In this document: positions 1 to 17,347 of the stretch, piece after piece
How the letters are laid out: each line of letters opens with the position of its first letter
How positions within the stretch are numbered: position 1 is the stretch's first letter
IMG/VR virus record: IMGVR_UViG_3300045988_093525
Location: 1-40,015 of that record
Direction: 5' to 3' (one strand)
Length of the DNA stretch: 40,015 bases
Origin: a virus
Program-made: the position numbers and the translations under genes
Notes under the pieces: generated by a model
What the model saw: only the letters and a program-made list of their open reading frames with translations
Databases searched by the model: none
What the model was told of the DNA's origin: nothing

Positions 1-45
1 TGAGGGGGTGGTGAGCGTACGCTCGTGAGGGTTCAAGTCCCTCCA
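1..45. repeat. attL core (direct repeat, identical to 39971-40015)
   Basis: tgagggggtggtgagcgtacgctcgtgagggttcaagtccctcca occurs identically at both ends. The true repeat may be longer, because the window is cut exactly at its edges. Confidence 0.9.
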
Positions 46-54
46 ACCGCACCA
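1..54 (+). tRNA. 3' portion of a tRNA-Leu(GAG)-like gene (anticodon loop to CCA); the 5' half lies upstream of the window
   Basis: Anticodon GAG at 2-4 within loop tTGAGGG. The 3' anticodon stem is GGTGG at 7-11. A long variable-arm hairpin GAGCG-TA-CGCTC spans 13-24. T arm GAGGG-TTCAAGT-CCCTC spans 27-43. Acceptor 3' strand CAACCGC is at 44-50, discriminator A at 51, CCA at 52-54. The long variable arm and the ...GTGAGGGTTCAAGTCCCT..CCGCACCA end resemble Firmicute tRNA-Leu. Confidence 0.65.
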
Positions 55-63
55 AGCTGATTA

Positions 64-104: not shown

Positions 105-149
105 TTGACATCATAAAGTCTTGCGTGGTCTGACATCATTTTGACATCA
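105..149 (+). promoter_or_regulatory. Three direct copies of (T)TGACATCA: putative arm-type integrase binding sites (P' arm)
   Basis: TTGACATCA at 105-113, TGACATCA at 131-138, TTGACATCA at 141-149. All are in the same orientation. The same 9-mer occurs twice near attR (39845-39864). Confidence 0.6.
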
Positions 150-1220
150 GAATATTTTAGAGATTCGTTCTACGATGTCATCTTCCATTTTAGGTGTCAC
201 ATGTGAGTAGGTATCCATCGTTTCTTGAAATGATGCGTGCCCTAGACGTTCTTGTATGGCTTTCATATTGGCTCCATTTTCGATGAGAAGTGTGGCATGG
301 GTATGTCTAGTACCATGCATAGTAAAAGCGGGCTTACCGATTAAACTGGCGTATTTCTTACATAGCTTGCTGACTTCATCAGGGCAGCGAGGAGCGCCTT
401 TTATGCCAGGGAATACAAGGTTGTTATTAATCCAGTTCATGGTTTTAATTCTGCGCTTGTCTATGACTGTTTTATGCTTCATAAGCTCCTGGAGTGTTTC
501 TGTATCAATGGCAATTATCCGTTTTGAGGATGTGGTCTTGGTTGTATTGGATATAACTGCCGTAGATCCGATTTTGAGGGCTGTTTGTGAAATGGATATA
601 GTTGATTTTTTGAAATCGATATCCGACCATCGCAATCCTAATAATTCAGAGCGCCGCATACCTGTTGCAAATGCTAATTTAAATAGCGCATGATGTTCTG
701 TATTTGATATATTGGATAAGAAGTCTTTTACTTCATCTGCAGCTAACGTTACCATATGCCGAACTTTAACCTGCTTTGGCCTATCTATGTTTTTCATATA
801 GTTCTTAGGGATGATGTCATCTTTTACCGCCTGCTCTAATATGGAGCCTAGAATTGTCATGGTATATGATATAGTCCTTGATGACAATCCATCCATTGAT
901 TCAAAGACATACCGTAATGTATTAGGTTTAATTTCGGCTAACTTTACGCCACCGATTTTATCTCTGATATAGCGATTGATAATTCCTGTATAGCTTTGAT
1001 ATGTGGCAGGGGTTATAGTCTTTTCCTTTAGATTCAACCATATATTAATCCAGGTGTTTAATGAAATAGTATCATCGAAATTAGCACATGCTTGATTAGT
1101 ATTTACGTATTTCTCCATAGCTTCTATGGCAGCTTTTCTGGTGGTGCCATAAAAGAATTTACGCTTACCGTTGATGGTTTTCGATACTTGGTATCGTCCA
1201 TCAGCTCGTTTTTTAGCCAT
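147..1220 (-). CDS. int: Tyrosine-type site-specific integrase
   Basis: 357 aa from ATG 1220 (AAGGA RBS upstream). The track start at 1271 lies inside the terminator hairpin. Catalytic signatures: ATGMRRSELLGLRW, HGTRHTHATLL (HxxR), LGHASFQETMDTYSHV (Tyr). The gene is adjacent to attL. Confidence 0.93.
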   Translation of the reverse strand: MAKKRADGRYQVSKTINGKRKFFYGTTRKAAIEAMEKYVNTNQACANFDDTISLNTWINIWLNLKEKTITPATYQSYTGIINRYIRDKIGGVKLAEIKPNTLRYVFESMDGLSSRTISYTMTILGSILEQAVKDDIIPKNYMKNIDRPKQVKVRHMVTLAADEVKDFLSNISNTEHHALFKLAFATGMRRSELLGLRWSDIDFKKSTISISQTALKIGSTAVISNTTKTTSSKRIIAIDTETLQELMKHKTVIDKRRIKTMNWINNNLVFPGIKGAPRCPDEVSKLCKKYASLIGKPAFTMHGTRHTHATLLIENGANMKAIQERLGHASFQETMDTYSHVTPKMEDDIVERISKIF

Positions 1221-1237
1221 ATCTTCAATCCTTATAA

Positions 1238-1337
1238 TAAAAAAAGATGAGGTCTTGTTCCATAAGAACAAGACCTCATCTTTAGTTGCGGCTAAACCGC
1301 TTATAATGATTTTAGTTTGGGGCTAAACCCCTTTGTT
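1238..1337 (-). ncRNA. Candidate ~100-nt structured RNA (int leader/attenuator or stand-alone sRNA) with two covarying hairpins
   Basis: It has its own sigma70-like promoter (1343-1371) and its own terminator (1239-1283). It contains GGGGUUUAGCCCC (1319-1331) and GCGGUUUAGCCGC (1288-1300). These sit inside ~23-nt imperfect direct repeats 31 nt apart; the loop is identical and the stem changes are compensatory. Confidence 0.4.
1239..1283 (-). terminator. Strong intrinsic terminator (minus-strand sense) immediately upstream of the int RBS
   Basis: Perfect 18-bp inverted repeat AAAGATGAGGTCTTGTTC (1243-1260) / GAACAAGACCTCATCTTT (1266-1283) with a 5-nt loop. On the minus strand it is followed by a U7 run (A-run 1239-1245 on +). 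Confidence 0.85.
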
Positions 1338-1342
1338 CTTAC

Positions 1343-1371
1343 ATTATAGAATAGATGTTTAAAAAAATCAA
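1343..1371 (-). promoter_or_regulatory. Sigma70-like promoter on the minus strand (-35 TTGATT, 17 bp, -10 TATAAT)
   Basis: + strand aatcaa at 1366-1371 and attata at 1343-1348 with a 17-nt spacer. It lies just downstream of the stop of the 1396-2139 gene. Confidence 0.6.
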
Positions 1372-1395: not shown

Positions 1396-2139
1396 TTACT
1401 TTATATTGTATAACGCTTTTATAACTGCTCGAATTTTATCAGTAGCCTGTTTATCTACTCGCATATCATATAGTGCATCTTTATGGCACCTAGGATTTTG
1501 TATGCGTATTTTACTTACAGTCCTAATTTGAGAGACGATAGCAACCGTGCCTGCGTTTAACCGTGAAACTTCTTCCATAATTATATTGTGTTTAGTAATT
1601 AGGGCATTCGCTTCATCTAGCTGTTTTTCAAAGCGTTTAACATCGCTAGCTGTTAACGTCTTTTTATCAGTAGTTTCGAATTCCTTCACGTAGTTTTCAC
1701 CTTGGTCTAACATCTTGCCGGACCTATTCAGCAAGACTGTAAATAATTCTGTTCCCAAATATACATCTGATTTATATAATTTACTAGGGCTCTCTTTATT
1801 AGGCTTTAAAGACCTTAGAGGGACGACAGTGACTGTGCTGTTTTTAGCATTACTTGGTGCCAGTACTATAGCATAATGCAGGCCACCAAACTCAGACCCT
1901 ATGCCGAAACCGAAGTCAACTTTAACTATATCGCCAGGTTTAAATTGTGGAAAATATTTCGGATTAAAAGTTTCTTCTTGCTTTATATATCTTAAATAAT
2001 TTCGCAGCCAATAATAGAGTAGGGCCGCTTTATGTTGGTCTGCAGCTAGTATATTTTTTAAGAACGTACTTATGCTACTCGCAAGCTCGGCTATTTTCGA
2101 CAATAAAGCCCCTTTGTTTTCTGGCTTTTTTAGATCCAT
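1396..2139 (-). CDS. Atypical MazF/PemK-fold protein (N-terminal extension plus ~85-aa insertion splitting the fold)
   Basis: 247 aa, AAGGAGG RBS 7 nt upstream of ATG 2139. GDIVKVDFGFGIGSEFGGLHYAIVL...VTVVPLRS and GTVAIVSQIRTVSKIRI...ATDKIRAVIKAL match the two halves of EndoA/MazF (GDVYFADL..GSEQGGVRP.., ..LLEQIRTIDKQRL..DKVDEAL). The conserved Arg-Pro after GG is His-Tyr here. Confidence 0.7.
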   Translation of the reverse strand: MDLKKPENKGALLSKIAELASSISTFLKNILAADQHKAALLYYWLRNYLRYIKQEETFNPKYFPQFKPGDIVKVDFGFGIGSEFGGLHYAIVLAPSNAKNSTVTVVPLRSLKPNKESPSKLYKSDVYLGTELFTVLLNRSGKMLDQGENYVKEFETTDKKTLTASDVKRFEKQLDEANALITKHNIIMEEVSRLNAGTVAIVSQIRTVSKIRIQNPRCHKDALYDMRVDKQATDKIRAVIKALYNIK

Positions 2140-2175
2140 ACAAAACCTCCTTTGTTATACACTTTATGTTCTACT

Positions 2176-2460
2176 TTATAATACCGATACATAATGATGA
2201 TAAAAGTCGATATTTTCTAATTCCGAATCATCTATATGTGACCTACGAACCATTTGTTCGACAAGGTTCACGTGTTCATCTAAGTAAAAATCATCATTAA
2301 TAATATGCATTAATTCATGTTTAATTTCCTCTCTCATGCGATCATGAGGGAGGTTTTTGTTTATGTAGATGTTATGAGTATCTACATCTTCACATTCCTC
2401 TGACACAGCATTGGCATGTGGCAAGTCGCAGTAAATCAAATTTACAACCAACGATAACAC
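2176..2460 (-). CDS. Short ImmA/IrrE-like zinc metalloprotease
   Basis: 94 aa with GTG start. HEXXH motif (EIKHELMHIIND). It lies directly downstream of the XRE repressor, like ImmR-ImmA pairs. Confidence 0.65.
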   Translation of the reverse strand: MLSLVVNLIYCDLPHANAVSEECEDVDTHNIYINKNLPHDRMREEIKHELMHIINDDFYLDEHVNLVEQMVRRSHIDDSELENIDFYHHYVSVL

Positions 2461-2475
2461 TCTCCCTTGTGTATA

Positions 2476-2865
2476 TTATTTGTGTTTAGATTTTAAGAAC
2501 TCTATGTATTTGACTGTTTCTTCCATCTCCTCTGTAGACATATCTTTTGCAGCAGAAAAAAGCATGCGTGCACCTGGTCTAGTGCGTAAGTACTCCGCGA
2601 ACTCTGCTGCTTCAGGGTCTGTGTAGTAGCCTTTAGTATCTTTATGGTCTGTTAATTGTTGGGAATCAGTCCAACCCATTAAATATGCAGGTGTAGTATT
2701 AAGAGCTTTAGCTAATGGTTCAAGTACATCAATTGGCATGTTTTCGATATCACCATTTTCATATCTATATATAGTAGCTCTATTTTTATTTAACAACTTA
2801 GCTAATGCATCAGCTGTATACCCTAATTCTAATCTTCTTTGTTTTATACGTTCTCCGATTCTCAT
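2476..2865 (-). CDS. XRE-family CI-like phage repressor
   Basis: The likely start is ATG 2865 (GTGAGGA RBS 7 nt upstream); the track start GTG 2877 is less likely. N-terminal HTH_3 motif (IKQRRLELGYTADALAKLLNKNRATIYRYENG). The gene is divergent from a Cro-like gene. Confidence 0.9.
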   Translation of the reverse strand: MRIGERIKQRRLELGYTADALAKLLNKNRATIYRYENGDIENMPIDVLEPLAKALNTTPAYLMGWTDSQQLTDHKDTKGYYTDPEAAEFAEYLRTRPGARMLFSAAKDMSTEEMEETVKYIEFLKSKHK

Positions 2866-2947: not shown

Positions 2948-2962
2948 TCGCATAAAATGCGA
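2948..2962. promoter_or_regulatory. Operator palindrome TCGCAT-AAA-ATGCGA
   Basis: Perfect 6+3+6 palindrome 10 bp upstream of the PR -35. Confidence 0.65.
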
Positions 2963-2971
2963 AAATTATTG

Positions 2972-3000
2972 TTGACATGCATTGCTCTATGGGGTAATAT
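2972..3000 (+). promoter_or_regulatory. Rightward early promoter PR (-35 TTGACA, 17 bp, -10 TAATAT)
   Basis: TTGACA at 2972-2977, TAATAT at 2995-3000, 17-nt spacer, upstream of the Cro-like gene. Confidence 0.7.
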
Positions 3001-3013
3001 CAAATCACAAGAA

Positions 3014-3029
3014 GTCGCATAAAGGCGAC
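3014..3029. promoter_or_regulatory. Operator palindrome GTCGCATAAAGGCGAC
   Basis: GTCGC...GCGAC inverted repeat sharing the TCGCATAAA half with the 2948 site. It lies between the PR start site and the Cro RBS. Confidence 0.55.
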
Positions 3030-3048
3030 TATAAAGGAGGTGAGATTT

Positions 3049-3264
3049 ATGAACACTAGAAAATTAAAAGCAAAATTAGTAGAAAAAGATGTATCTATTG
3101 CAGATTTAGCAACCATATTAAATGTTGATAAATCAACTGTATACAGGAAGCTTAACAGGGCGGGAGAGGCTTTTACAGTTAGCGATGTAGATAAAATCGC
3201 TAAAGCATTATACTTAACTTATAACGATATCAATGAAATTTTTTTTACCAATATAGTCGCATAA
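3049..3264 (+). CDS. Cro-like HTH regulator
   Basis: 71 aa from ATG 3049 (AAAGGAGGTG RBS). HTH motif (VSIADLATILNVDKSTVYRKL). First gene of the rightward operon. Confidence 0.8.
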   Translation: MNTRKLKAKLVEKDVSIADLATILNVDKSTVYRKLNRAGEAFTVSDVDKIAKALYLTYNDINEIFFTNIVA

Positions 3265-3272
3265 TATGCGAC
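3256..3272. promoter_or_regulatory. Distal operator: perfect 17-bp palindrome GTCGCATA-A-TATGCGAC over the cro stop codon
   Basis: Same half-site family as the 2948 and 3014 sites. It is located ~240-310 bp downstream of them. Confidence 0.55.
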
Positions 3273-4749: not shown

Positions 4750-5142
4750 ATGCCTGAACTTGTAGCAAAGAAAAAATCAAAACCAGCTATAAATACATTT
4801 GATTTTAGCTTCTTTGAAAAACATAACGGTAAACATGATAGAGCTATGAAAGTTGCTATTGTTACATGTAAGAGCTATATCAAATTATCAATGATGGCCT
4901 ATCGGAAAATTAAAGGCCCAGAGTATTTCAAGGTCGGTATTGATATTAACAACAGAGTAATATGTGTATCCCCTGCAGTGGAGACCGAACCATTTGTGAT
5001 TAAACCGACGGCGAGTCAGATTGAACGCAGATGCATTTTTATTACTCAAAAGCGAGCTGTCATTGATAAGTTGATAAAACTAGGAATGCCAAAAGTTGTA
5101 GAAGGTCAACTAGTTGATGGAGAATTAATATTTCAATTCTAA
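4750..5142 (+). CDS. Hypothetical early protein
   Basis: 130 aa with a strong AAGGAGG RBS. No recognisable motif. Confidence 0.7.
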   Translation: MPELVAKKKSKPAINTFDFSFFEKHNGKHDRAMKVAIVTCKSYIKLSMMAYRKIKGPEYFKVGIDINNRVICVSPAVETEPFVIKPTASQIERRCIFITQKRAVIDKLIKLGMPKVVEGQLVDGELIFQF

Positions 5143-15758: not shown

Positions 15759-15947
15759 TTGACTGATGTGTATTGTGAAAAGAGACGATGCCTAAATAAT
15801 GTTAAAGGTTGGTGCAAGGCTAATGGAATTCATATTGATCATATGTGTAAGTCGTATGCACCATCTCATTCGTTAGTAAAAACAAAAACCGCAAAGGTAC
15901 ATAAGGAATGCGGTAAATATAAGCAGAATAAAGGAGTGCTGAAATAA
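15759..15947 (+). CDS. Small Cys-rich (DUF1540-like) protein
   Basis: 62 aa, TTG start 7 nt after GTGAGGTG. The pattern is C-x5-C-x8-C...C. Confidence 0.5.
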   Translation: MTDVYCEKRRCLNNVKGWCKANGIHIDHMCKSYAPSHSLVKTKTAKVHKECGKYKQNKGVLK

Positions 15948-17347
15948 TGGCAGATAACATTACGATACATTGCGCGTATACAGATTTGGTAGATATTGCT
16001 TCAGTTATTCCTAATCCTAGAAATCCTAACCACCATAGTGATAAGCAAGTAGAGTTGTTAGCCAAAGTGATAAAAGCACAAGGTTGGCGAGCTCCGATTA
16101 CGGTGAGTAACCGTTCTGGGTTTATTGTAAGAGGCCATGGGCGGTTAATGGCTGCACAATTATTAGGACTAGATACTGTTCCAATTGATCGGCAGGATTA
16201 TGAAAGCGAAGCTGCAGAGTATGCAGACCTGATTGCAGACAATAGAATCGCCGAATTATCAGATATCGATAATACCTTATTAGGAGAGTTATTAGCTGAT
16301 ACGGGAGATTTTGCTGAGTTTACAGGTTATTCTGACGATGATATAGCTAGCCTATTAAACCAGGTAATGGCAGATGAAGTTCATGAGGATGATTTTGATG
16401 CAGAAGAAGCTATCAAATCAATTAAAGAACCTATGACAAAGTTCGGTGATGTATGGATGCTAGGTGAGCATATGTTATTGTGTGGCGACTCAACAAAGAC
16501 AGAATCTCTTGATTGTCTACTGGGGGGGGACGTTGTTGATATGGTATTTACAGACCCACCGTATAACGTGGCTTATGAGGGAGGTACAAAGGAAGCTCTT
16601 ACCATTCAAAACGATAATATGTCAGATGCTGAATTTGATATATTTCTTGATGATGTATTCGCTTTGGTTAACAAAGCATTAAAACCTGGTGGAGCGTTTT
16701 ATATCTGTCACTCTGATAGCTGTGGTGGTCAATTTAGACGTGCGATTCGAGATAATGATTTACTTATCAAACAATGCCTGATTTGGGTTAAGAATACATT
16801 TGTAATGGGGCGCCAAGATTACCAGTGGAAACACGAACCAATTCTATATGGATGGAAACCTGGTGCTAGTCATAAGTTTTATGGTGGCAGAAAACAGTCT
16901 ACTGTGATTGATGACAATCTTCCTCTTGAAATCGAAAAAGATGGAAATGACTATATTCTTCATTTTTCTAATGAAACGGACCATATTGTAGTAAGAGTGC
17001 CTGGGTATGAAATAGAAGTTAATAATGGTACTGAATGTGATTCTATATGGCGATTTAATAAGCCATTAAGAAATGGTGAACATCCGACGATGAAACCGAT
17101 TGCATTATGTGCACAGGGAATTAAGAACTCATCAAAACCTGGAGAACTTGTATTCGAACCGTTTGGTGGCTCAGGGTCTACTTTGATTGCCTGCGAACAA
17201 ACAAAGCGCAGATGTAGATGCATTGAATTAGACACTAAATACTGTGATGTAATAGTAAAACGATATATCGAATTTATTGGAAGTAATAAAAATGTATATG
17301 TGATTAGAAATGGGCAACGCTTAGAATTTTCTGAGGTTGCCCAATAG
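15947..17347 (+). CDS. ParB-like nuclease domain fused to a DNA N6-adenine/N4-cytosine methyltransferase
   Basis: 466 aa. N-terminal ParB/Srx-like region (NPRNPNHHSDKQV...IVRGHGRLMAA). Motif IV FTDPPYNV is followed by motif I EPFGGSGST, which is the beta-class order. Confidence 0.88.
   Translation: MADNITIHCAYTDLVDIASVIPNPRNPNHHSDKQVELLAKVIKAQGWRAPITVSNRSGFIVRGHGRLMAAQLLGLDTVPIDRQDYESEAAEYADLIADNRIAELSDIDNTLLGELLADTGDFAEFTGYSDDDIASLLNQVMADEVHEDDFDAEEAIKSIKEPMTKFGDVWMLGEHMLLCGDSTKTESLDCLLGGDVVDMVFTDPPYNVAYEGGTKEALTIQNDNMSDAEFDIFLDDVFALVNKALKPGGAFYICHSDSCGGQFRRAIRDNDLLIKQCLIWVKNTFVMGRQDYQWKHEPILYGWKPGASHKFYGGRKQSTVIDDNLPLEIEKDGNDYILHFSNETDHIVVRVPGYEIEVNNGTECDSIWRFNKPLRNGEHPTMKPIALCAQGIKNSSKPGELVFEPFGGSGSTLIACEQTKRRCRCIELDTKYCDVIVKRYIEFIGSNKNVYVIRNGQRLEFSEVAQ

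Follow-up and report, generated by a model that had tools for sequence, protein, structure and literature searches.

A 247-codon gene in the lysogeny module of a prophage raises the question of what a protein with the fold of MazF does when no antitoxin gene stands beside it. MazF is the textbook example of a ribonuclease (RNase) toxin that depends on an antitoxin. The gene lies on the minus strand of a 40,015-nucleotide (nt) stretch of viral DNA (IMG/VR virus record IMGVR_UViG_3300045988_093525, positions 1 to 40,015; hereafter the window), between genes for an XRE repressor and a small HEXXH protein on one side and an integrase gene on the other. We tentatively favor, at a rough probability of 45%, a reading in which this gene is a cargo gene ("moron") of the lysogeny module that is expressed in the lysogen and encodes a self-restrained, single-protein anti-phage effector with a MazF fold.

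According to this reading the gene would be transcribed together with the repressor gene in the lysogen, and its product, of 247 amino acids (aa), would be an RNase or at least an RNA binder. Even without an antitoxin the protein would be harmless, either with its helical additions holding back or gating the RNase core or with a narrow target. A second, infecting phage would then supply a trigger that unleashes RNA cleavage, upon which translation would stop and the infection would abort. The repressor and HEXXH protein would constitute the prophage's own switch and contribute only a promoter, and a conserved RNA cassette located between the gene and the integrase gene would mainly control read-through into the latter. 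A preliminary description of the locus had already proposed a role in defense or abortive infection, and by analogy with the positional precedents Ltp and Tha, discussed below, this still appears to be the most plausible function.

The 247-aa protein and its family

The gene and the parts of its product are as follows.

Positions 1396 to 2139, minus strand: gene for the 247-aa long MazF-fold protein, with the ribosome-binding site (RBS) AAAGGAGG at 2153 to 2146 (Pfam, PHROGs, PDB alignment, AlphaFold2, Foldseek)
Residues 6-55: N-terminal helical hairpin
Residues 66-129: first half of the MazF core, with the loop E83-x-G85-G86-L-H88-Y89 and the motif P107-L-R-S110
Residues 131-193: inserted helical hairpin
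Residues 197-243: second half of the MazF core, with the motif Q204-I-R-T-V-S209-K210-x-R212

Pfam detects PemK_toxin (PF02452) at residues 67-117 (2.9e-09, 37.5 bits with a cut-off of 23.1), a match that covers only profile positions 1-52 of 109, and NCBIfam gives only a weak MazF match that is far below its cut-off. Searches of PDB sequences with phmmer and hmmsearch align residues 67-105 with MazF 4-42 and residues 196-231 with MazF 71-106, the second half being recovered only with PDB sequences and not with Pfam. An AlphaFold2 model built on 38 homologues (pLDDT 90.5, pTM 0.80) likewise contains both of the MazF halves that had been proposed from the translation. When this model was compared with the PDB using Foldseek, ranks 1-44 were all chains of MazF/Kid-type toxins (MazF, MoxT, YdcE, Kid and toxins of toxin-antitoxin (TA) pairs), with E-values down to 1.4e-05 and TM-scores normalized to the target of 0.64-0.81; the best matches were S. 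aureus MazF chains at 0.78-0.81. The predicted structure thus confirms a split MazF/Kid fold with a complete barrel. It also gives form to the N-terminal extension and the insertion noted in the preliminary description, modeling the former as helices 6-33 and 35-55 and the latter as two long helices, 131-156 and 164-193, that are placed between barrel strands and followed by further strands and a C-terminal helix.

The preliminary description had likewise pointed to His-Tyr in place of a conserved Arg-Pro, and the alignment does place His88-Tyr89 at Arg25-Pro26 of Bacillus MazF, where Arg25 is the catalytic residue (Arg25 in B. subtilis, Arg29 in E. coli). The conserved E83 aligns with the Glu of the S-E-Q-G-G loop of MazF. 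In the profile alignment the catalytic Thr48 (/Thr52) falls opposite position 109, which is Arg in the window protein, with a one-residue register shift being possible; position 109 is Thr or Ser in 127 of 149 relatives and the neighboring Ser110 is invariant.

The view that this architecture had not been described before is overstated, as the protein matches phrog_1412 of PHROGs v4 at 3e-51 over its full length (residues 23-246 with profile positions 12-236 of 237). A profile search of 1.84 billion cluster representatives returned 1659 at E<1e-3 and 382 at E<1e-30, with nearly all of the latter being 230-300 aa long and matched end to end. Annotated phage members obtained by tblastn include ORF017 of Staphylococcus phage 77, gp02 of phage P954 and relatives of these phages, SpyM3_0682 of Streptococcus 315.1, proteins of several Javan phages (e.g. 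Javan166_0069) and two streptococcal satellites, and the family ranges over Veillonellaceae, Lachnospiraceae, Clostridium, Streptococcus, Gemella, Cytobacillus and others. The closest genome match to the 247-aa protein, at 62% identity, is from Veillonella parvula. Labels given to members in GenBank and RefSeq conflict ("hypothetical", "antitoxin mazE-like", "toxin" and "PemK/MazF family toxin"), and phrog_1412 itself carries the label "antitoxin mazE-like" under the category "moron, auxiliary metabolic gene and host takeover". The "antitoxin" part of this label is contradicted by the toxin-type fold of the model. The gene is a new member of a catalogued sequence family, and the layout of repressor, protease, cargo and integrase genes in which it occurs is classical.

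Conservation was scored on 149 representatives that are 26-39% identical to the query, and the family signature was examined in 38 sequences as well. Residues E83, G85, G86, P107 and S110 are invariant (149/149), position 88 is His in 146 sequences and the canonical Arg in the other 3, and Y89, S209, K210 (148/149), R212 and P216 are conserved in at least 97%. Within the N-terminal extension W44, E55 and F58 are conserved in at least 95%, and the insert, which is poorly conserved in sequence, is 34-163 residues long. The window protein carries the whole signature (W44, E55, F58, E83-x-G-G-x-H-Y, P107-L-x-S110, S209-K-x-R212 and P216), the residues of which are invariant or at least 90% conserved in both the 38 and the 149 sequences. 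Judged from these alignments, the active-site loop is the part of the family under the strongest constraint, and the change from Arg to His is systematic.

These patterns bear on the possibility that the protein is an inactive relic, derived from MazF, that has lost its nuclease function and has some structural or other role, akin to the catalytically dead MazF that had been considered as an alternative. Replacement of Arg-Pro after the two glycines by His-Tyr is what such a relic could display, as is the Arg at position 109 where most relatives have Thr or Ser. However, the strongest constraint in a family this divergent falls on the active-site region (E83, G85, G86, S110, H88 and K210), which speaks against a decayed relic, and the three sequences that differ at position 88 carry the canonical Arg. 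In addition, His is a common general acid/base in RNases. We therefore regard loss of function as very unlikely.

The slot between repressor and integrase

The window comprises a complete siphovirus-type prophage, with genes for terminase, portal, major head, tape measure and tail located to the right of the lysogeny module. This prophage is of a Veillonella type and the 247-aa gene is a Veillonella-lineage member of phrog_1412; GenBank contains no near-identical phage, its sole match being 122 nt of the repressor gene in a Staphylococcus phage. The lysogeny module occupies the left end and reads leftward on the minus strand in the order XRE repressor, 94-aa HEXXH/M78 protein, 247-aa protein, 176 nt of non-coding DNA, integrase (int) and a tRNA/tmRNA-like 3' end. 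The features flanking the 247-aa gene are as follows.

Positions 2476 to 2865, minus strand: XRE/CI-type repressor gene, 129 aa from ATG, RBS GTGAGGA (Pfam HTH_3, 6.9e-12)
Positions 2176 to 2460, minus strand: gene for a 94-aa short M78/ImmA-like protein, GTG start, motif H48-E-L-M-H52 (Pfam Peptidase_M78, 1.9e-05)
Positions 147 to 1220, minus strand: tyrosine integrase gene, 357 aa from the ATG at 1220 (Pfam Phage_integrase, 1.3e-30; Phage_int_SAM_3, 1.5e-09)
Positions 1 to 55, plus strand: tRNA/tmRNA-like 3' end (GGTTCAAGTCCCTCCAACCGCACCA; weak match to Rfam tmRNA, model positions 319-374, E 0.6)
Positions 2948 to 3272, no strand assigned: divergent control region (direct sequence reading, promoter/hairpin scan)
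Positions 3040/3049 to 3264, plus strand: cro-like helix-turn-helix (HTH) gene, 74-aa product (Pfam HTH_26, 1.3e-07)

The three co-oriented genes for the repressor, the 94-aa protein and the 247-aa protein sit between the divergent cro-like gene and int. The list of open reading frames (ORFs) and direct reading of the sequence bear out the coordinates and strand first given for them, as well as the intergenic gaps of 15 nt (repressor to 94-aa gene) and 36 nt (94-aa to 247-aa gene). The 36-nt gap holds only an RBS, and the first minus-strand terminator encountered past the start of the operon, a hairpin of 19 base pairs (bp) followed by a U-run at 1283 to 1236, is located 3' of the 247-aa gene. 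These short gaps, the gene's own RBS and the position of the first terminator support the effector reading.

The repressor gene is the first gene of this operon, and its product also matches the transcriptional repressors phrog_8 and phrog_4, PADLOC capH (1.5e-10) and, below cut-off, a DicA/RstR-like NCBIfam model. The 94-aa protein scores 24.9 bits with Peptidase_M78 (cut-off 22) but covers just profile positions 7-57 of 123; it matches phrog_20936 over its full length (4.4e-37) and the metallo-protease phrog_87 (5.5e-05), has no PADLOC capP match, and has relatives of 89-91 aa in the same place in three related loci (L088, L090 and L092). In Sfi21-type lysogeny modules this protein is known as the "metalloproteinase-motif ORF". 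The divergent repressor and cro promoters are surrounded by three operator-like palindromes (TCGCAT-N3/4-ATGCGA; 2948-2962, 3013-3030 and about 3255-3272), the third of which sits just past the cro-like gene, and the rightward promoter TTGACA-17-TAATAT lies at 2972-3000. Thus the features of an ImmR/ImmA-type switch are present: an XRE repressor gene facing a divergent cro gene with operator repeats, and an M78 gene directly after the repressor gene. As the prophage is complete and the pair is located at its divergent cro-type switch, we consider this pair to be primarily the phage's own repressor switch.

The context of relatives was examined in a set of 80 genome loci with crude ORF calls whose neighbors were scanned against Pfam. 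An integrase is found no more than two ORFs downstream in 34 of 69 loci, comprising 26 tyrosine and 8 large serine enzymes by Pfam (25 and 8, respectively, by BLAST clustering), and placement next to an integrase recurs in phages P954, 315.1 and Javan166. The nearest upstream ORF encodes an HTH protein in 12 and a Peptidase_M78 protein in 8 of 66 loci, and the next upstream ORF in 15 and 3 of 66. Clustering of every ORF (30 aa or longer) located up to 700 nt from the gene in 79 loci gave only integrases, serine recombinases and HTH repressors as recurrent neighbors, all of them co-oriented with the gene.

The absence of an adjacent protein antitoxin, which the preliminary description had remarked upon, holds both in the window, where the ORF list contains no MazE/PemI-like ORF adjoining the gene, and in the related loci. 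No conserved small partner ORF occurs within 700 nt in the 79 loci, the largest such cluster comprising 5-7 loci, and no MazE/AbrB family is among the commonest neighbor families in the Pfam scan of 66-69 loci. A hidden protein antitoxin was rejected on the basis of this clustering, which yields just integrases and HTH repressors as recurrent neighbors.

The repressor and/or the 94-aa protein had also been proposed as keepers of the toxin, which would make a three-gene system resembling the defense operons controlled by CapH and CapP. The three genes are adjacent and co-oriented, the repressor resembles capH, capH-like and capP-like proteins are encoded upstream of 7 and 4 of 66 relatives, respectively, and by position an XRE and M78 pair precedes the homologue in Streptococcus 315.1. 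However, homologues are not consistently found after such a pair, since M78 genes occur in only about 11 of the 66 upstream neighborhoods. Additionally, eight metagenomic Veillonella prophages (L085-L092) encode one and the same family protein (P0028, which shares 83% identity with the query), and the repressor region ahead of it takes three forms: a 247-aa HTH protein, a 125-aa HTH protein with an 89-91-aa M78 protein, and a 138-aa repressor. In one P0028 locus, genes for a 133-aa HTH protein and a 287-aa Bro-N protein come before the M78 gene. The 94-aa protein lacks a capP match, and the arrangement of XRE and metalloprotease genes beside operators and a divergent cro is that of the standard prophage switch (PMC3952083). 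A keeper role for this pair was rejected as largely refuted by context, and we consider it extremely unlikely. Because the same P0028 follows three repressor types, what is conserved is a cargo slot between repressor and integrase, in which the gene sits in roughly half of the related loci, and not a partnership with XRE and ImmA.

All eight P0028 loci also have an extra 188-aa gene directly before the MazF-like gene that is missing from the window. This extra gene (3371-3937 in L085-L092, 3412-3987 in L005) encodes 188-191 aa, in which an N-terminal zinc ribbon is the only Pfam domain, and in locus L152 this gene is present without a MazF-like gene. The slot can therefore hold zero to two independent cargo genes. 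That it is used for accessory genes expressed in lysogens, as originally proposed, has precedents in ltp of TP-J34 (PMC3952083) and in Tha of staphylococcal phages (PMC11087260).

The effector reading is supported by the fold, the invariant loop, the moron category, the lack of a conserved partner, the slot between repressor and integrase, and occasional neighbors that are known defense genes (AbiEii, PD-Lambda-1, PD-Lambda-2_B, dGTPase and a type I restriction-modification S subunit). Support also comes from the precedents Tha, Ltp and GajC, and from alternative cargoes (NYN, Abi_2 and PBECR proteins) in viral contigs that share the cassette and integrase junction. Several points nevertheless weigh against it. 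RNase activity of the 247-aa protein is unproven because the canonical catalytic Arg is replaced by His; no PADLOC model matches the protein; and the literature searched provided context and precedents but no experiment or functional study on any family member. We infer co-transcription with the repressor gene from spacing only, and the leftward promoter read directly from the sequence, TTGCAT-17-TATTAT, is weak by consensus and was not reported by the promoter scan. Auto-inhibition by the helical parts is pure inference. Finally, an integrase is missing from the surroundings of about half of the family loci, and recognized defense genes adjoin only a few of them.

The remaining features of the prophage concern its ends. 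The int gene has the RBS AAGGA about 10 nt 5' of its ATG, and its product equals in length the integrase of L085-L092. The tRNA/tmRNA-like 3' end at positions 1 to 55 is probably the bacterial side of the attachment site, and it is followed by its own terminator, a terminator-like site reported by the terminator scan at 63-100. ARAGORN found no tRNA in the window because the attachment-site gene is cut at the window edge. In L085-L092 the flank downstream of the 357-aa integrase instead contains a small ORF and genes of molybdenum-cofactor/radical-SAM type. To the right, just before the terminase genes, a gene at 15947-17347 (plus strand) encodes a 466-aa ParB-like/DNA methyltransferase fusion (phrog_498, 2.6e-152).

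The RNA cassette downstream of the gene

The non-coding DNA between the 247-aa gene and int contains a structured element with the following parts.

Positions 1236 to 1371, minus strand: non-coding cassette (promoter/terminator scan, folding, covariance model)
Positions 1371 to 1343, minus strand: promoter-like sequence TTGATT-17-TATAAT
Positions 1336 to 1331, minus strand: ACAAAG box
Positions 1331 to 1319, minus strand: hairpin 1, GGGG-UUUAG-CCCC
Positions 1300 to 1288, minus strand: hairpin 2, GCGG-UUUAG-CCGC
Positions 1283 to 1236, minus strand: the terminator described above

The fold of the 176-nt stretch is much more stable than that of shuffled sequence (z -6.6). The cassette is 96% conserved in related Veillonella prophages and 88% conserved in V. 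parvula f34 despite the presence there of a MazF-like protein of only 62% identity and a serine-type recombinase. In V. parvula f34 there are compensatory changes in hairpin 1 and the terminator; for L005, compensatory changes are recorded. In other genera, a covariance model built from Veillonella cassettes has matches at the same relative position, shortly downstream of the family gene, and overall the cassette is found 30-130 nt past long-MazF genes of many genera of Bacillota. In most copies a strong promoter close to the consensus (TTGACA-17-TATAAT) is followed by two units of ACAnAG plus a GC hairpin with a UUUAC/UUUAG-type pentaloop, and by a terminator. Further copies are present in these loci.

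L005: 4812-4930
L007: 4823-4940
L013: 4776-4888
L019: about 4793-4899
L048: 4816-4910
L001 (Streptococcus phage Javan166): just 3' of 4043

A copy also occurs in satellite Javan387. Rfam 15 returned nothing but noise for the cassette, also for short stretches and E-values as high as 10, with no pemK or abiF motif. The RBS region of the 247-aa gene (2140-2160, minus strand; AACAAAGGAGGTTTTGT-ATG) resembles the 5' end of the cassette (1319-1340, minus strand; AACAAAGGGGTTTAGCC).

A descriptor consisting of ACAnnR, a 3-4-bp GC stem and a YTNNS loop has 37 matches in the 250 nt that follow the gene, spread over 33 of 78 family loci, versus 3 in the remaining 1.1 Mb, an enrichment of about 700-fold; the other 45 loci lack the motif as defined. 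As the covariation count for hairpin 1 is partly circular, the sequences having been chosen for possession of the hairpin, a structure-blind test was added. With a structure-blind pattern, 35 of 41 matches in the zone behind the gene (85%) can pair, versus 15 of 265 (5.7%) elsewhere.

Within the window, the int ATG lies 16 nt past the U-run of the terminator (1220-1243, minus strand) with only an RBS between, so transcription of int must read through the terminator. At the 5' end of the cassette AAGAACAA (about 1340-1333) is complementary to UUGUUCUU in the 5' arm of the terminator, a pairing that could serve as an antiterminator. We consider the cassette to be probably a leader or attenuator of int, or else a small RNA, and in the window it reads best and most simply as an int leader or attenuator. 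Formally it is also nut-like, with a single-stranded box and a pentaloop hairpin.

Scans of viral contigs with four sequence variants yielded 63 motif instances, 37 of which follow a family gene. Several of the remaining instances are in structural-gene regions and are probably chance matches. Elsewhere the same cassette follows genes for an NYN-domain protein (L094 11760-12425 and relatives), an Abi_2 protein (L105 11501-12427), a PBECR barnase/EndoU/RelE-like nuclease (L106 2059-2451), the zinc-ribbon protein of L152 (189 aa, the ORF ending 78 nt before the motif) and an endolysin (L093 1636-2433, with a second copy behind the MazF-like gene). The motif is also found after ArpU/DUF1492-like regulators (L098, L102), there without a promoter. 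The NYN, Abi_2 and PBECR proteins are those among these cargoes that have a Pfam match, and all are predicted nucleases or Abi proteins, which suggests a hotspot for nuclease cargo in front of the integrase. In L093 the copies at 474-492 and 1427-1445 (minus strand) flank the long-MazF gene, giving the order endolysin, motif, MazF-like gene, motif, a layout that insertion of gene-plus-RNA cassettes through recombination at the motif would produce.

The neighboring structured RNA had been put forward as yet another possible keeper; its existence and conservation are borne out, but not a specificity for the 247-aa gene. The most explicit form of this idea is a type III-like protein-RNA TA pair in which the cassette RNA is the antidote: two ACA-containing units would fill both RNA grooves of a MazF-like dimer as a pseudo-substrate, and an infecting phage that shuts off host transcription would allow the labile RNA to decay and thereby free the RNase. 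ACA is the classical recognition core of MazF, and ToxN-type toxins share a Kid/MazF-like fold. The enrichment of the cassette behind family genes of many genera, the covarying stems and the near-consensus promoter of most copies are all in keeping with an antidote, as is its occurrence after family genes without a neighboring integrase (L013, L018, L048, L072, L081) and in Javan166 and Javan387, and on either side of the gene in L093. A prophage AbiF neutralized by the non-coding RNA RCd22, which has two motif copies, offers a precedent (10.1101/2025.04.15.648962).

A specific, directly binding RNA antidote would not be expected to serve unrelated toxins, and so the occurrence of the cassette behind NYN, Abi_2, PBECR, zinc-ribbon, endolysin and ArpU-like genes weighs against this explanation. 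The idea of the RNA as a partner specific to the MazF-like protein was weakened when only 37 of the 63 motif instances proved to follow a family gene. More than half of the family loci lack the motif as defined, the hairpin test set was partly picked for having the hairpin, and the RNA comes after the toxin gene with its own promoter, unlike the order in all known type III systems. Furthermore, the start of int 16 nt past the terminator gives the cassette an obvious other job. We judge a type III-like pair to be unlikely. A broader variant, in which the cassette RNA guards or partners a whole set of unrelated RNase effectors of prophages (long MazF, NYN, Abi_2/HEPN and PBECR) that replace one another in a single slot, is in our estimation quite doubtful. 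If true, it would define a new class of RNA-held ribonuclease defense cassettes in Bacillota prophages, of which the long MazF would be the commonest effector and would work without a protein antitoxin.

The same junction invites an explanation that has nothing to do with defense, namely that a domesticated MazF fold binds or processes RNA sequence-specifically for the phage's own lysogeny control, acting on the ACAnAG-hairpin leader or other phage transcripts and thereby tuning the integrase or early genes. The gene is situated tightly and co-directionally ahead of integrases of two unrelated classes, a conserved leader with ACA motifs lies between gene and int, and int in the window has no room for a promoter of its own and hence depends on read-through from the leader and terminator. 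The resemblance of the RBS region of the gene (AACAAAGGAGGTTT) to the 5' end of the leader (AACAAAGGGGTTT) and the family-wide replacement of the catalytic Arg would also fit. However, many prophages with the same leader and integrase carry another nuclease and not this gene, which is thus dispensable for integrase control. Roughly half of the family loci lack an integrase. The variable insert length and patchy distribution resemble accessory cargo rather than core regulation. For these reasons we regard a lysogeny-control function as quite unlikely, and retain the single-protein anti-phage effector as our tentative preference.

Significance and comparison with known systems

Double-size MazF-fold proteins form a large family whose members occur singly in the prophage slot used for lysogen-expressed genes; their hosts include human-associated Veillonella, Lachnospiraceae and Streptococcus, with relatives in S. 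aureus and S. pyogenes phages. Such a family would show how the MazF fold becomes tamed without a protein antitoxin and, should it prove to be a single-gene abortive-infection system, it would be one more that defense catalogues such as PADLOC miss. As public annotation is contradictory, testing toxicity and plaque formation would put many records right. Of greatest interest beyond the gene itself are the conserved RNA cassette and the interchangeable nuclease cargo before it; positioned between this cargo and the integrases, the cassette is a candidate for int attenuation or for RNA-based control of prophage nucleases.

Relative to other members of phrog_1412 there is no difference in kind, given the full-length match and the same position next to an integrase. 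The barrel fold is shared with MazF/PemK/Kid type II toxins (PF02452; S. aureus MazF 4MZP, B. subtilis EndoA 4MDX; TM-score up to 0.81), as are the GD-hydrophobic strand, the S-E-x-G-G loop, P-L-T/S-S and Q-I-R-T-x-S/D-K-x-R. Unlike MazF, the 247-aa protein is of double size, with two helices added at the N-terminus and two more inserted between strands 4 and 5, has His-Tyr for Arg-Pro, and is encoded by a single gene of prophage lysogeny modules without a MazE/PemI gene. The family thus departs from type II MazF in three respects: size and insertions, the change from Arg to His, and the lack of an antitoxin.

Type III TA toxins are RNases with an adjacent structured RNA that are borne on prophages or plasmids and cause abortive infection (PMC3401426). 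The locus resembles ToxIN/CptIN/TenpIN and AbiF/RCd22 in combining an RNase toxin fold (ToxN being Kid/MazF-related) with an adjacent small structured RNA that has repeated units. It differs from type III systems in that the RNA is 3' of the gene with its own promoter and has two non-identical units instead of a tandem array. No tandem-repeat RNA is present 5' of the 247-aa gene, where the 36-nt gap holds the RBS alone, and the protein has no match to ToxN, CptN or TenpN, as Pfam gives PemK_toxin only and PADLOC, including its Abi/ToxN-type models, gives none. As for CapH/CapP operons, the repressor matches capH, the 94-aa protein lacks a capP match, and the pair sits at a cro-type switch.

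A split MazF-like domain with a helical insertion also occurs in GajC of type II Gabija (Liu-DS1) from E. coli. This protein has a five-helix insertion and a beta1-beta2 loop required for defense, and the system has an abortive-infection phenotype (PMC13069673); our comparison is with the published description only. Unlike the 247-aa protein, whose neighbors are the M78 protein and the integrase, GajC depends on an adjacent UvrD-type helicase, GajB, and no UvrD/helicase family is among the 25 commonest Pfam families in each of three neighbor sets (66-69 loci).

In gene order the module follows Sfi21 and TP-J34, which have int, a superinfection-exclusion (sie) or cargo gene, a metalloproteinase-motif ORF, a CI repressor gene, and divergent cro and ant, the cargo of TP-J34 being the lysogen-expressed superinfection-exclusion gene ltp (PMC3952083). 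With this module type and ImmR/ImmA of ICEBs1 the window shares both order and sizes of the genes, in that a repressor gene for about 120-130 aa is followed by a gene for a small HEXXH protein, cargo and int, with cro divergent. The window differs from Sfi21/TP-J34 in having a MazF-fold cargo instead of the Ltp lipoprotein, and its HEXXH protein is unusually short at 94 aa, about half of the M78 profile.

By analogy, the best precedent for the 247-aa gene is Tha (tail-activated HEPN anti-phage system) of S. aureus phages 80alpha, phi11 and phiNM2. Tha is a HEPN RNase of about 300 aa that is encoded between cI and int of 80alpha, transcribed from the cI promoter in lysogens, non-toxic alone, and triggered by minor tail proteins of incoming phages (PMC11087260). 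Tha differs in its HEPN fold and in having an inhibitor gene, ith, on the opposite strand, an equivalent of which is not evident in the window. What the two have in common is a single RNase-fold protein that is encoded between repressor and int without a classical antitoxin, and that in the case of the 247-aa gene would likewise be expressed in the lysogen.

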